Below are positions 1,347-52,195 of a stretch of 61,283 bases of DNA, piece after piece. The notes under the pieces were generated by a model, which was not told where the DNA came from, did not search any database, and was given only the letters and a program-made list of their open reading frames with translations. The stretch is from Candidatus Bathyarchaeota archaeon (GTDB taxonomy: Archaea > Thermoproteota > Bathyarchaeia > Bathyarchaeales > DTEX01). Every line of letters begins with the position of its first letter. Position 1 is the stretch's first letter. A program made the position numbers and the translations under genes. The stretch lies in contig JAGTQA010000014.1 of NCBI GenBank assembly GCA_018396975.1, positions 1-61,283 on the forward strand, in the 5' to 3' direction.

Positions 1347-2318
1347 ATGAGCTATGAGATGTGGACTGAAAAGTATAGGCCTAAAACACTCGACGAAATA
1401 GTCGACCAGGAGGAGATAGTTAGCAGACTCAAGAGCTTTGTTAAGGCCAAGAATGTCCCCCACTGCATATTTGCCGGCCCACCCGGAACTGGAAAGACGA
1501 CGGCAGCCCTCTGCTTAGCACATGATCTTTATGGCGAAAACTATCGGGAGTATATTATGGAGCTTAATGCTAGCGATGAGAGGGGCATAAATGTTGTTAG
1601 GGAGACTGTTAAGACGTTTGCTAGGACGAAGCCTATGGGCGAGGTAACGTTTAAGCTGCTCATATTGGATGAGGCAGATAATATGACCGATGATGCACAA
1701 CAGGCTTTAAGGCGCACGATGGAGCGCTACACTGAGACGGCGCGCTTCATCTTAATAGCTAACTACAGCGGTAAAATAATTGAACCCATACAGTCTAGGT
1801 GTGCACCCTTCAGATTCACGTATCTCCCCCGAGAAGCCATAATTAAGAGAATCAAATATATTTGTGAGAGGGAGAATGTTGAGATTCTGGATGATGGTAT
1901 AGAGGCTATTCTGGAGATTAGTGAGGGTGACCTTAGGAGGACCGTAAATATCCTTCAGACAGCCGCCTCAGTTGGTAAACCAATAGACGCTGAGGTTGTA
2001 TATTCAGTTGTTGGCAGGGCTAATCCACATGATGTTAGGGAGATGATGCTCTCAGCCCTAAATGGCGACTTCATATCTGCGAGGAACAAGCTTAGGGAGC
2101 TCACGCAGAAGTATGGGCTCTCCGGAATCGACATAATAAAGCAGATTCACAGCGAAATATTTAGGCTGAATATTCCGGATAGGTGGAAGGTTAAGCTGGC
2201 CGATATAGCCGGCGAAATAGATTATAGGCTGATTCAGGGCGCAAGCGACGAGATACAGTTAAGCGCCCTACTCGCTAAGCTCGTTGAAGCCGGCTACGAG
2301 ATAAAGAAGGGCCTATAG
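1347..2318 (+). CDS. rfcS: Replication factor C small subunit
   Basis: WTEKYRPKTLDEIV, Walker A GPPGTGKTT, LILDEADNMT, SRC motif. Start moved to ATG 1347 (MSYEMW). Confidence 0.93.
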   Translation: MSYEMWTEKYRPKTLDEIVDQEEIVSRLKSFVKAKNVPHCIFAGPPGTGKTTAALCLAHDLYGENYREYIMELNASDERGINVVRETVKTFARTKPMGEVTFKLLILDEADNMTDDAQQALRRTMERYTETARFILIANYSGKIIEPIQSRCAPFRFTYLPREAIIKRIKYICERENVEILDDGIEAILEISEGDLRRTVNILQTAASVGKPIDAEVVYSVVGRANPHDVREMMLSALNGDFISARNKLRELTQKYGLSGIDIIKQIHSEIFRLNIPDRWKVKLADIAGEIDYRLIQGASDEIQLSALLAKLVEAGYEIKKGL

Positions 2319-2338
2319 ATCTAGAGAGTGATGTCTAG

Positions 2339-3577
2339 ATGTCTGCCAGCATAGCATATATTCCCTGGACTCAGAAGTATAGGCCTAGGTCGCTATCGGA
2401 GGTTATAGGGAACGAGGAGGCGAAGCGTAAGATTCTTGAGTGGATTCGATCATGGGATAGGGGCATACCGGAGAAGAGGGCCCTGTTCATTTATGGCCCA
2501 CCCGGCATCGGGAAGACCGTGACGGTTGAGGCCCTAGCAAACGATTTAAATATGGAGCTGATTGAGAGCGACGCCAGCAGCTATAGGACTGAGGAGGCTG
2601 TTAGGCGGCTGGCTGGTAGGGCCTCGCAGTTCGGCTCCATATTCGGTAGAAAGAAACTCATATTGTTTGATGAGCTGGATGGTATAACTGGCTCGGCCGA
2701 TGCTGGGGGATTGAGGGAGATAACTGAGGTGATAAAGACAACTAGAGTTCCAATAATATTGATTGCGAACGACGCCTTTGAGCCTAGATTCGCATCGCTG
2801 AGGAACCTCTGCCTACTAATAGAATTTAAGAAGCCCTCAAAAGTTGAGGTTGCGAGGCATCTGGCGAAGATATGCGCTAGGGAGGGGATAGACGCGGAGG
2901 AAGCGGCCCTAAAATTTATAGCTGAGAGGAGTGGGGGTGACGTTAGGTCAGCCATAAATGACCTACAGGCCCTGGCTCAGGGCAAGAGCAAATTAACCTA
3001 CGAGGATGTTTCTTGGCTGGCGTCTAGGGATCGGAAGGAGGAGATATTTAATGTCTTAAGGATGATCCTTTATGCTAGGGATGCATCCGCCGCCAAGGCA
3101 GCCATAAACATGGCCGATGTAGACCTAGACATGCTCCTCGAGTGGATATATGAGAATATCCCATACCACATTAAGAATCCTCATGAGCTGGCGGCGGCGA
3201 TGGATGCCCTATCAAAGGCGGATATATACCGTGGGAGGATTAAGGAGACTCAGGACTGGTCCTTAATCCGATATGTTATAGACTTGATGACCGCCGGGGT
3301 TGCATCCTCATGGAGTAGGAAGAGCAGTGGGTGGGTGCCATTCAAGTTCCCGGAGCGCATAAAGATGGCCTCAACCTCTAAGGAGGAGAGGGACTTACTC
3401 TCAGAGATTGGCAGAAGGATTGGGAGGAAGTGCCATTTATCGTCCTCACGTGCGATAAAGGAGGTTCTACCATATCTGCGCATAATATTCCAGAATAATC
3501 CGAAGATGGGGAAGGGCATAGCTAGGTGGCTGGATCTCAACGATGAGATGATAGCCTACATATCTGGTAAGGAGTAG
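2339..3577 (+). CDS. rfcL: Replication factor C large subunit
   Basis: WTQKYRPRSL, GPPGIGKT, LILFDELDG. Lies directly downstream of rfcS, the usual archaeal pairing. Confidence 0.9.
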   Translation: MSASIAYIPWTQKYRPRSLSEVIGNEEAKRKILEWIRSWDRGIPEKRALFIYGPPGIGKTVTVEALANDLNMELIESDASSYRTEEAVRRLAGRASQFGSIFGRKKLILFDELDGITGSADAGGLREITEVIKTTRVPIILIANDAFEPRFASLRNLCLLIEFKKPSKVEVARHLAKICAREGIDAEEAALKFIAERSGGDVRSAINDLQALAQGKSKLTYEDVSWLASRDRKEEIFNVLRMILYARDASAAKAAINMADVDLDMLLEWIYENIPYHIKNPHELAAAMDALSKADIYRGRIKETQDWSLIRYVIDLMTAGVASSWSRKSSGWVPFKFPERIKMASTSKEERDLLSEIGRRIGRKCHLSSSRAIKEVLPYLRIIFQNNPKMGKGIARWLDLNDEMIAYISGKE

Positions 3578-49339: not shown

Positions 49340-49993
49340 TCACCACTCACAAATTTCATACATTCTCTCCAGATAAGTATTTGGATCAGTCTCCCTAACT
49401 ACGCCCCTATCAACATCAATTATGTATATAGCGTGAAGTCTCGCGTTTTTTATTTCCTCAATACTTACTGGTGGATTACTATAATATAGGTCGCATAAGG
49501 CTTTTATCTCCCTTATTTCACTAGGAGTTCGATAGCGCGGAGGCTTAGCCAACGCTGACGGAAACCATAAAGTATAATATGGTGGGGTTGCCAAAGCAAA
49601 TTTTTCAGCGTAACCACTATATCTTGTTATTTTACTAGTAACTCTAGCCTTACAATATGTTATTGGATCAACAGCATGCTCCGGTGGAACATAACCAGTC
49701 TCAACCTCAACAATCAAGCTGCCTAGACCTTTCAGGGCATATATGTCGCATGACAGCCCATTCAAGGCATACTCTAAATCAACATAGTAACCACCTAAAA
49801 TAAGGTATTTTGCACACACAATTTCCATGATTGAGTGATTAATTTTGACGGCATTCCTCCTATATAAGAGAATTAGTTTATCCCTCAACCTAAAAATCTG
49901 CTGGCAAACCCTCTCACTCTCACCACTACACAACCTATTAACAATAAGATTCAAATCTTCCTCAAACCGCTCAACAGACCTCTCCAACACCAC
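49340..49993 (-). CDS. Hypothetical protein with PD-(D/E)XK nuclease-like core
   Basis: E...CDIYALKGLGSLIVEVETG...K arrangement resembles Hjc-type D-x(n)-E-x-(K/E) cores. GTG start. Confidence 0.4.
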   Translation of the reverse strand: MVLERSVERFEEDLNLIVNRLCSGESERVCQQIFRLRDKLILLYRRNAVKINHSIMEIVCAKYLILGGYYVDLEYALNGLSCDIYALKGLGSLIVEVETGYVPPEHAVDPITYCKARVTSKITRYSGYAEKFALATPPYYTLWFPSALAKPPRYRTPSEIREIKALCDLYYSNPPVSIEEIKNARLHAIYIIDVDRGVVRETDPNTYLERMYEICEW

Positions 49994-50064
49994 TCTCCAA
50001 AAAATATTAAATTTTTAGATTTAAAAATTTGTGCAAAAGATCTTATATACTGAGAGATTTAAAT

Positions 50065-50215
50065 AATTAAGTGCCAAGCCAGAAAGTAGGCTTTAAGCAC
50101 TGCGTTTAAGCAAAGAGCACGCCAGCCGAAACGGCTGAAGGCTGGTGTGCGATAAAGACTTTGCTTAAACGGGCCGGACAGTGCTTAAGGCTTAGATCTG
50201 GCTTGGCACTTAATT
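50065..50215 (+). ncRNA. Candidate structured RNA: 151-nt rod-like hairpin of unrecognised family
   Basis: Four nested helices paired by hand: 50065-83/50197-215 (19 bp perfect), 50087-102/50179-194 (16 bp, 2 G-U), 50103-115/50159-171 (13 bp perfect), 50117-127/50140-150 (11 bp, 1 G-U). AT-rich TATA-like boxes lie upstream and a TTTT run follows at 50214-50217. Confidence 0.4.
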
Positions 50216-50413
50216 TTGTTGAGTCAATATGCTTATTCGGTTTTCGTTCGATTATATGTGTAGTACAGCATCTATTTAAACTGTGCAGAGATTATGTTGA
50301 GTGACAAAGCTTGGTTATCTTCATTTAAGCGACCCATAGGTCATTTAGAAAGGCTCCAAGTTATTCTTAGTCACGTTCAAATTCATTACCACAATAGCTT
50401 GGTTATACTTTCC

Positions 50414-52195
50414 TCATTGTTCGGATTCTATCTTCTTTAGTTGTCTCCTATACATTTCTACTATTTCGTCCACTCTTGTCGCGTCTTCTGGAGATTTGTC
50501 CGTGCGGTATCTTCCTGTAAACCTTGGGAACCTTATTGCTAGCCCGCTCCCCTTCCTTATTAGGTCTCTTGCGCATGTGTGGATTGGGCTTAGGGTTATC
50601 TCCGCGCCAATAACTTCTATAACCATTTTGGGTAAGAACCATACATCTGCCTCAAGGTTTGAGTTCACTCTTGGATGCCTATGCCCTATCCTATATGGCT
50701 CAAGCATCTTTGGTAGGCTCTGCAGATCTTCATCCGTGAAGCCTGATCCACACTTACATATTGTTTCGAATGTGTCATTTTCATGGTTGTAGGCTGCTAG
50801 AAGTAGTGCACCATATGTTCCAGCCCTCCTACCCCTCCCATAGAATGCTCCAACAACAACTAGGTCAACTGTGTCAATCATCTCGCTCTTATAATCGCGC
50901 TTATATTTTATCCAGAGCCAGCCTCTCGCACCAGCCTGATAAACCGCATCGCCGCTTAATGATTTGCAGACAAGCCCCTCACATCCGGCCTCAACAGCCT
51001 CCTCAAAGAATCTCTCTAGATCTTCGACATTATCCACTATCAGATACTTCGCTAACTGAAATCTATCGCTCTGCTCGATTATTTTCTCAAGAATCTCGTG
51101 CCTAACTGGATAGGGATCCAGCGTCAGATCTCTTCCATCAACATAAAGGACGTCGAATGCGAACAGCGAGACTGGATACTCACTTGCCGCCTTAGCAATG
51201 TCATATTTGCGTCTCCTATGCATGAGCTCTTGGAAGGGCATCATCTCACCAGTATCTAGGTTTACGGCGACGCACTCGGCTTCTATAATCGCTTCCTTCG
51301 CCTTTACATGCGTCCTGATCAACTCAACAGCATCTGGATACTGGCTTGTTATATTCTCAAGCCTCCTAGAGAACAATATTATTTTATCCTTGTCCTTGTG
51401 AGCTTGTATTCGCTCCCCATCATACTTGTATTCGGCTATGCACTTTCCGCCCAACTTCTCGAGTATTTCGTTTGGCGAGGATAGTCTCTCAGCCAGCATT
51501 GGCCTAATAGGATTCCCAACTGATACTCTAAAGTTTTTGAGGGCTTCAATTCCACCCTCGGCAACGGCTTTCGCAACCTTACCTAGATCGGAGGATATGT
51601 TATATGCCCTCTCGATTATGTCCCTAGCGTTCTTTCCTCCACCGTAAGCTATCGCTAGGGCGTCTAGAACGGTCATGTCAGCTATTCCAAGGCGTAGCTT
51701 CCCGGTAACGGTTCTAATTATATATTTCGCATCCTTAGGCGATGCATCAGCCAGAAGCCCAGCCAAAAGATTCACCTTTAAGTCCACAGAGCCCTCTCCA
51801 GACGCCTTCGCTATTTTATCAAGCGTCTGATAAACCCTCTCAACAGTTAATGGCTTCCGGAAAAATGATACTTGACGCCTCTTCTCAAGAAAATTCTGCG
51901 CGGTCTCTCCTAAATCTCCAGTCCTTGCAAGATCCTCATCTATCTCGCTCTCTTTACGCCCAGATGCCTTGGCAAGAGCCTTTATCGCAAGTCTCTCCGC
52001 AACACCAATCTCTATACCCATAAAGTCGGGATAAAGCTTCCCCTGAGTTAAATAAACGACTTTATCAATGATCTCCTTAGGTGTTTTCCTGAAGAAGTCA
52101 ACTAGGTAATCGGTCATTTCAAGCCTCTTAGTTGTGCTCTCAATCCTCTCATATGCTTCAGTGACCAGCGAGTAGTCCACCATGAAATCCCCCAA
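50414..52195 (-). CDS. lig: ATP-dependent DNA ligase (paralog B)
   Basis: Motif I EYKYDGERIQAH. EGLVCKSL...WLWIKYK. VDLVVVGAFYGRGRR. Motif VI AIRFPRFTGRYRTDKSPEDAT. Confidence 0.92.
   Translation of the reverse strand: MGDFMVDYSLVTEAYERIESTTKRLEMTDYLVDFFRKTPKEIIDKVVYLTQGKLYPDFMGIEIGVAERLAIKALAKASGRKESEIDEDLARTGDLGETAQNFLEKRRQVSFFRKPLTVERVYQTLDKIAKASGEGSVDLKVNLLAGLLADASPKDAKYIIRTVTGKLRLGIADMTVLDALAIAYGGGKNARDIIERAYNISSDLGKVAKAVAEGGIEALKNFRVSVGNPIRPMLAERLSSPNEILEKLGGKCIAEYKYDGERIQAHKDKDKIILFSRRLENITSQYPDAVELIRTHVKAKEAIIEAECVAVNLDTGEMMPFQELMHRRRKYDIAKAASEYPVSLFAFDVLYVDGRDLTLDPYPVRHEILEKIIEQSDRFQLAKYLIVDNVEDLERFFEEAVEAGCEGLVCKSLSGDAVYQAGARGWLWIKYKRDYKSEMIDTVDLVVVGAFYGRGRRAGTYGALLLAAYNHENDTFETICKCGSGFTDEDLQSLPKMLEPYRIGHRHPRVNSNLEADVWFLPKMVIEVIGAEITLSPIHTCARDLIRKGSGLAIRFPRFTGRYRTDKSPEDATRVDEIVEMYRRQLKKIESEQ

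Follow-up and report, generated by a model that had tools for sequence, protein, structure and literature searches.

To our knowledge, few classes of structured non-coding RNA are described in archaea beyond the universal ones and the guide RNAs. The described systems that share traits with the RNA reported here come from several directions. In riboswitch aptamers of the SAM-I type, which combine a K-turn with a pseudoknot between the P2 loop and J3-4, an asymmetric internal loop bends a helix back on itself, so that a downstream unpaired segment pairs with an apical loop in a short pseudoknot surrounded by many invariant unpaired purines. Repeated structured units within one transcript are found in the tandem glycine riboswitch, in the ToxI repeats of type III antitoxins and in sponges of the CsrB/RsmZ type, and the ToxI units are pseudoknots as well. 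Archaeal H/ACA sRNAs have their own promoter and consist of one, two or three hairpin units. OLE, GOLLD, ROOL, raiA and HEARO combine strong covariation and a complex architecture with occurrence in a wide range of environments and a function that cannot be deduced from the genomic context. The rod-like 4.5S/SRP RNA and 6S RNA have paired 5' and 3' ends and an elongated secondary structure with conserved loops. At the level of DNA, foldback MITEs are intergenic palindromes with perfect ends.

The RNA described here is encoded on a contig of Candidatus Bathyarchaeota archaeon, of which a stretch of 61,283 nucleotides was analysed as a whole (the window). Bathyarchaeia are described as an abundant group of anoxic sediments, peat and hot springs of which hardly any member has been cultured. 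The RNA shares the above traits, the folded-back helix by prediction, and differs from each of these systems. Compared with the SAM-I-type aptamers it has no similarity in sequence or CM, no multi-helix junction and no canonical K-turn, and it is a stand-alone RNA, not a 5' leader. In contrast to the tandem-module RNAs its units are ~86 nt long and lie within one enclosing stem, there is no toxin or partner gene, and again it is not a leader. Unlike H/ACA sRNAs it has no two-sided guide pocket, its loops are invariant, it contains a loop-bulge pseudoknot and it has no match in Rfam. It differs from OLE, GOLLD, ROOL, raiA and HEARO in being archaeal, much smaller, modular and absent from Rfam 15, and from 4.5S/SRP and 6S RNA in having no match to their models, a pseudoknot-compacted shape and a variable number of modules. 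The likeness to foldback MITEs, an intergenic 151-nt palindrome with perfect ends, is confined to this one genome, whereas the RNA is single-copy in the window, orthologous, covarying and strand-asymmetric and has non-conserved ends. We consider it very likely that 50072-50208 is the gene of a genuine, conserved structured RNA from a family not described before; the more specific assignment, as to identity and structure, to a stand-alone one-module gene of an undescribed pseudoknotted archaeal RNA family is likely.

The preliminary description had reported a self-complementary sequence at 50065-50215 with four coaxial helices of 19, 16, 13 and 11 bp, separated by a 3x2 loop (AAG/GA), the 7-nt bulge GGCCGGA and a 1x8 loop (A opposite GATAAAGA). 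Folding reproduced these helices exactly, and the loops as well. The minimum free energy of the RNA is −91.5 kcal/mol, compared to −43.8 ± 3.7 kcal/mol for 200 dinucleotide shuffles (z = −12.8), none of which was as stable; the reverse strand folds more weakly (−79.2 kcal/mol). The three G-U pairs (50089-50192, 50092-50189 and 50121-50146) were placed correctly; of the complementary apical pentamers, the third, GGCTG, is found at 50140-50144 and not at 50141-50145. The hairpin occurs once in the 61-kb window.

Homologous loci were gathered by a protein search with the neighbouring ligase, which gave 33 archaeal loci. In 20 species-level genomes of Bathyarchaeia, MAGs obtained from hot springs in China, a homologue of 50072-50208 occupies the same site near the ligase, with 81-94% nucleotide identity; their ligases are 85-92% identical to that of the window, and the DNA 3' of the hairpin does not align between the window and these 20 genomes. 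All syntenic homologues adopt the same fold and in every one the plus strand is the more stable. In an alignment of 21 sequences, the window and the 20 syntenic genomes, 91.4% of the cells are paired and 36 pairs have changes on both sides, a level of pairing and covariation that was reached by none of 500 column shuffles. When the partner was slid by one to three columns, pairing fell to 26-47%. RNAalifold, run independently, recovered the same helices and left the conserved internal loop unpaired. The outer seven pairs (columns 1-7) are paired in only 33-67% of the cells of this alignment; since they are not conserved in the homologues, the conserved unit is 50072-50208, and the RNA is ~137 nt long instead of the 151 nt given before. 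The three basal pairs of the window's 16-bp helix are likewise not kept family-wide, and this region is a conserved 6x5 internal loop (Table 1).

Table 1 Features of the RNA locus and its two flanking genes (positions in the window)
Feature	Position	Strand	Basis or remark
217-aa neighbour protein, divergent, upstream	49340-49993	-	AF2 model, homologue search
Conserved upstream element TTTGTGCAAAAG	50028-50039	+	Near-palindromic TTTG..CAAA, then purine-rich BRE-like stretch, just 5' of TATA box
TATA box CTTATATA	50042-50049	+	Conserved in all homologues; 3' end 24 nt before first conserved stem pair
Outer extension of hairpin	50065-50071, pairs with 50209-50215	+	This genome only, not kept in homologues
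Conserved structured RNA, one-module form, 137 nt	50072-50208	+	CM match, synteny, covariation
H1, 5' strand (closing stem)	50072-50083, pairs with 50197-50208	+	Covariation across family scaffolds
Conserved internal loop, 5' side	50084-50089, opposite 50192-50196 (TTAGA)	+	AAGTAG here, family consensus GAGCAC
H2, 5' strand (conserved part)	50090-50102, pairs with 50179-50191	+	Covariation, RNAalifold
H3, 5' strand of module	50103-50115, pairs with 50159-50171	+	100% of cells paired, 21-sequence alignment
H4, 5' strand	50117-50127, pairs with 50140-50150	+	Double changes in all 11 pairs
Apical loop, 12 nt	50128-50139	+	
Pseudoknot, 5' strand CGGC	50132-50135, pairs with 50173-50176	+	Within apical loop
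One-sided internal loop, 8 nt, GATAAAGA	50151-50158, opposite A50116	+	AAGA(C) and opposite GAG nearly invariant
'Bulge' GGCCGGA, 7 nt	50172-50178	+	Pseudoknot 3' strand is 50173-50176
T-run, likely archaeal termination signal	50214-50217	+	T-rich tails in homologues
ATP-dependent DNA ligase	50414-52195	-	Pfam DNA_ligase_A_N, _M, _C

The strand on which selection acts can be read from the wobble pairs. On the plus strand, G-U cells outnumber A-C cells by 87 to 18 (in 30 and 6 pair columns, respectively) in the 21-sequence alignment and by 266 to 59 in 94 modules among the matches listed, which agrees with the earlier hint, drawn from three G-U pairs, of selection on a plus-strand transcript. 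CM R1 scores 160 bits at 50072-50208 on the plus strand and 38 bits on the minus strand. A foldback MITE or a palindrome acting as DNA, such as a recombination or replication site or a cruciform, would explain the perfect 19-bp terminal inverted repeat with its AT-rich ends in this genome. It has next to no probability in our judgement: the hairpin has one copy in 61 kb with no direct repeat flanking it, an exact match to its 19-nt terminal repeat is absent from 185,579 representative genomes (GTDB), and its conservation at an orthologous site in 20 species argues that it is not a MITE. In addition, the outer 7 bp are not conserved, G-U and A-C are distributed asymmetrically between the strands, the one-sided loops are conserved and a pseudoknot between loop and bulge is meaningless in duplex DNA. 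A 15-mer of the terminal repeat gave 72 single matches in viral contigs, all chance, and none of three matches of the module pattern in a viral scan was confirmed by the CM.

Upstream of the RNA lies a promoter of archaeal type, made up of a BRE-like element and a TATA box at about −30 to −24. Of the three TATA-like boxes noted before, the one at 50042-50050 is conserved; the other two are not the conserved box. In 69 family members among the matches listed, the AT content peaks at 97% at −29 and −27 from the first conserved stem pair and TATA-like motifs begin at −31 to −29, the normal archaeal distance to a start site. Transcription would thus start near 50070-50074. Just upstream of the TATA box, the TTTGTGCAAAAG element is kept in 20 of 20 syntenic homologues and in two-module relatives, with the family consensus tTTTt.g.cAAAa at about −45 to −34. 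It would act as BRE or as the site of a regulator. The near-palindrome TTTG-TG-CAAA is found at the same place in L073-L100, L109, L200 and L214, in a region shared with the divergent 217-aa gene, and may bind a regulator instead of being a BRE alone. At the 3' end, the T-run had been positioned correctly and presumably terminates transcription at 50214-50217; at least three T within 25 nt are found in 53 of 70 family members and at least four T within 15 nt in 37 of 70 (among the matches listed). From the conserved promoter at a fixed distance together with the T-rich tail we infer a discrete, stable transcript from about 50072 to about 50215. A scan for bacterial-type promoters and terminators was uninformative, as the genome is archaeal.

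The gap between the flanking genes, given as ~420 nt before, is 420 nt long (49994-50413), and both genes are on the minus strand. The gene 3' of the RNA had been called DNA ligase B; its Pfam domains (Table 1) identify it as an ATP-dependent DNA ligase instead. Since the start of the hairpin follows the ligase stop codon by about 20-45 nt in the 20 relatives, one may ask whether it is a cis element of the ligase gene, a 3'-UTR stabiliser, terminator or antisense regulator. This is highly improbable. Read on the ligase strand, the wobble pairs turn into A-C mismatches and the CM reaches 38 bits instead of 160. The promoter is oriented in the opposite direction, and in the window ~198 nt (50216-50413) lie between the RNA and the ligase. 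Moreover, linkage to the ligase is seen in one clade only: most members of the family are not beside a ligase, and 12 other ligase loci are without the RNA.

The other neighbour, a 217-aa protein, has no match in Pfam, NCBIfam or PDB sequences. A search retrieved 1465 homologues, and all named ones are from Bathyarchaeia. D83, E96 and E98 are invariant in this family. The best PDB fold matches of its AF2 model (pLDDT 92) are all PD-(D/E)XK nucleases (XisH, SfsA, FokI, R2 endonuclease and Can2); these matches are weak (E ≥ 2.6e-3, TM about 0.3). Judged by the model, the protein looks like a member of an uncharacterised, lineage-specific nuclease-like family. It was considered as a part of the RNA system and rejected, because outside the window clade and the two-module sister groups of this clade its gene does not adjoin the RNA.

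When neighbours were clustered across the family loci listed, no gene family was conserved outside the ligase clade. The downstream gene is convergent in 33 and co-directional in 24 of 57 loci among the matches listed, i.e. there is no orientation bias, and the co-directional ones have no function in common (ferritin-like, MFS, Cys/Met PLP enzyme, SSB-OB, ELP3, DUF523/1722). The lack of conserved gene neighbours across the family points to a stand-alone gene. The RNA has the generic characteristics of stand-alone ncRNAs: a covarying structure, its own promoter and terminator, and conservation independent of neighbours. A type III toxin-antitoxin RNA was rejected, since there is no conserved downstream gene and the only linked gene of the window clade is divergent and upstream.

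The family is considerably larger than the ligase-linked group. In a more distant genome (L091, ligase 74% identical) the same outer stem encloses two tandem copies of the inner part. A metagenome scan with a pattern of the invariant loop nucleotides matched at least 120 loci; among the matches listed, the module CM confirmed 94 (at least 94 loci) and the other 26 of 120 were chance matches. Altogether, at least 180 modules were found in at least 91 loci. Each module comprises ~86 nt, that is H3, the 1x8 loop, H4, the 12-nt apical loop and the 7-nt 3' segment. Of 71 distinct scaffolds among the matches listed, six (the window included) carry one module, 62 carry two and three carry three. Since relatives have two or three modules on the same scaffold, the RNA of the window is the minimal, one-module form.

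Promoter, H1, conserved internal loop and H2 are common to the family. H1 is a closing stem of 10-11 bp with heavy covariation, for example CCAAGCUGGG, GCAGGUUGGG or CCCGAGUUGGG, each with its complement, and its pairs 2-11 are canonical in 66-71 of the 71 distinct scaffolds (matches listed), with many compensatory types. The internal loop, GAGCAC opposite U(U/C)AGA, sits within the invariant GGCUUAGAC; its 3' side GGCTTAGA is invariant despite mismatches (C.A in 65 and C.U in 57 of 71 scaffolds). In 94 modules among the matches listed, H3 has double changes in 11 of 13 pairs and H4 in 11 of 11, with 93.7% of the H4 cells paired. About 20 unpaired nucleotides per module are conserved, grouped around a pseudoknot.

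This pseudoknot is formed by four nucleotides of the apical loop (CGGC) and four of the 'bulge' (GCCG). In 150 CM-aligned modules among the matches listed, the first pair is CG in 142, AU in seven and GU in one; the second is AU in 71, GC in 56 and GU in 23; the third is GC in 147 and GU in three; the fourth is CG in 114, UA in 22 and UG in 14. Non-canonical combinations account for 0 of these 600 cells and compensatory changes are present at three of the four pairs. For some of the modules the pattern used in the search had preset three of the four pairs; 63 of the 150 were found by the CM and do not match this pattern. Within the pattern-derived set, one pair was left free to combine R and Y, and A.C was observed not once compared to ~14 cases expected under independence. 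A fifth pair (U-G) is unsupported, with 33 of 94 cells unpaired (modules among the matches listed).

The preliminary description thus had the helices right; what its rod shape lacks is the pseudoknot, with covariation between the apical loop and the 7-nt bulge. The pseudoknot requires that H4 runs back along H3, which makes the RNA compact and not a rod: the 11 bp of H4 would be folded back alongside the 13 bp of H3. As this geometry requires a hinge, the conserved 1x8 loop probably forms the sharp bend of the modelled fold-back. K-turns were considered for both internal loops and are not proposed here: GA/GA tandems could form, but neither the lengths of the loops nor their register match the canonical motif. 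Nor is the second, 'switch-like' apical hairpin that had been proposed a conserved switch, since no more than 24 of 94 modules are able to form it and 46 of 94 have A-C at one of its pairs (matches listed).

In RNAs with several modules among the matches listed, the pairing of loop and bulge is canonical in 113 of 113 cases within the same module, and across modules it is fully canonical in 70 of 128. The commonest two-module arrangement has differing letters, CAGC/GCUG and CGGU/ACCG. At two-module loci such as L204 (5384-5556), L142 and L128, the first module has CAGC/GCUG and the second CGGU/ACCG or GCCG. It looks as if tandem modules were under selection against mispairing across modules. 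Covariation alone cannot tell whether identical modules pair within or between molecules, and the pairing is module-specific, so one might imagine that the loop-bulge pairs are intermolecular and that the RNA forms homo-oligomers by analogy to recently described RNA-only assemblies. We regard this as very improbable: the matched lengths of H3 and H4 and the conserved asymmetric loop suit a fold-back within the module, and the differing pseudoknot letters of most tandem modules are explained most simply as avoidance of mispairing in one molecule.

The family is not restricted to hot springs. In the large two-module group, the EndA encoded on a peat contig shares 88-92% identity with proteins from Bathyarchaeia MAGs, and the family occurs in peat and wetland Bathyarchaeia. 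On the divergent three-module contigs, the product of a neighbouring gene shares 87% identity with a protein from a MAG named "Methanomicrobiales archaeon", and the RNA is indeed present in two Methanomicrobiales MAGs from NCBI (GCA_013415565.1 and GCA_013415685.1). EndA orthologues on two Bathyarchaeia contigs of more than 2 Mb had no adjoining CM match, and neither had the DUF523/DUF1722 orthologue in Methanogenium sp. S4BF. Judged by these matches, the family is widespread in Bathyarchaeia and also found in some methanogen genomes, and thus in two archaeal phyla.

Known classes were tested with cmscan. Rfam 15 at gathering thresholds gave no match in the window, and in 25 homologous loci the only matches were tRNA genes elsewhere in those loci; at E ≤ 10 the one-, two- and three-module forms returned only noise. 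In the literature we found general RNA-discovery papers, whose titles and abstracts contain no description of this RNA. Altogether, the proposal of a novel structured RNA gene on the plus strand has held: it is single-copy in the window, syntenic in 20 species and covarying, has a promoter and a T-rich tail, and is without a match in Rfam.

A divergent SRP RNA, RNase P RNA, H/ACA or C/D sRNA that escapes the Rfam models would likewise have paired ends and a strong promoter, as housekeeping RNAs do, and H/ACA sRNAs, too, are built of one to three hairpin units. GAG and AAGA may pair as tandem G.A, and the bulge is frequently followed by 'ACA', which resembles the K-turn and ACA of an H/ACA sRNA; the bases of this 'ACA', however, are part of the paired H2, and the apical loop takes part in the pseudoknot. 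A two-sided pseudouridylation pocket is lacking, as the internal loop has 1 nt on one side and 8 nt on the other, and so is a RUGAUGA box. No UGAUGA is present in 50065-50215, and the sole CUGA is in the apical loop. Moreover, the sequence of the internal loop is the same in all modules and species listed, and invariant loops in every module and species are the opposite of what guide RNAs have. Together with the cmscan result, where nothing relevant appeared at E ≤ 10, this makes a known archaeal class highly unlikely.

What could such an RNA do? RNAs that are conserved this strongly usually carry out a defined biochemical task. The conserved unpaired nucleotides, the presence of one to three modules and the lack of a linked gene lead us to infer a binding RNA that acts in trans. 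Each of its modules would bind a protein or a small ligand autonomously and with high affinity, and the RNA would serve as an RNP scaffold, or as a titrating or sensing RNA, with a capacity that scales with module number. We put this forward tentatively, at somewhat less than an even chance, on the basis of the conservation pattern. It is possible, if doubtful, that the ~86-nt module represents a new functional RNA domain, which could be a ligand sensor specific to archaea, a catalytic core or the core of an RNP.

Alternatively, the modules may be aptamers for small molecules or ions that resemble riboswitches, working in trans or controlling read-through into the downstream gene. The dense invariant unpaired nucleotides around the pseudoknot would fit, and tandem homologous modules recall tandem aptamers. 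We know of few riboswitch classes in archaea, so that an archaeal-specific class is plausible. Control of a downstream gene is difficult to reconcile with convergent genes in 33 of 57 loci listed and unrelated genes in the co-directional ones, by which a riboswitch in a 5' leader was also rejected; the RNA of the window is oriented towards the 3' end of the ligase gene and has its own T-rich terminator. We therefore consider aptamers of this kind unlikely. That the module is a ribozyme, self-cleaving or with another activity, is very unlikely, even if its compact pseudoknotted fold, ~20 invariant positions per 86 nt and tandem units would be in keeping with one. It has no match to the ribozyme classes of Rfam and no association with mobile or rolling-circle elements, and since a single covarying closing stem encloses all modules, the RNA more probably stays intact than is cleaved into its units.

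If the module is indeed a new functional domain, the family, with at least 94 metagenome loci, 21 syntenic genomes and ~20 invariant unpaired positions per module, would be a new functional RNA class in abundant but poorly understood archaea of sediment and peat. A single module would then be reused one to three times per RNA and be common to Bathyarchaeia and a lineage of Methanomicrobiales. Since the module is small, autonomous and defined by covariation, this is directly testable, and the one-module form of the window is the simplest construct.

Some observations concern single groups of relatives. In three-module relatives (L133 11061-11347; L230/L231 5620-5905; L107, L138, L144 and L114), at least some of which belong to Methanomicrobiales MAGs, the closing stem differs and reads GCCUCAG.../...CUGGGGC and short GAAC...GUUC linkers separate the modules. 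All three modules share the pseudoknot letters CGGC/GCCG, unlike the two-module forms of Bathyarchaeia. L095 and L096 have two GGCTTAG motifs 252 nt apart upstream of the ligase (about 2076-2346, minus strand); they are matched by neither CM and are probably due to chance. Finally, the additional DNA of the window between the RNA and the ligase (50216-50413) contains direct repeats, one of 22 nt at 50213 and 50291 (77% identical) and AGCTTGGTTAT, which is repeated at 50308 and 50396. These repeats resemble the sequence that relatives have at the 3' end of the RNA together with its tail (GGCTTGGTTATC in L073), which suggests that this segment arose by a local tandem duplication of the 3' flank of the RNA.
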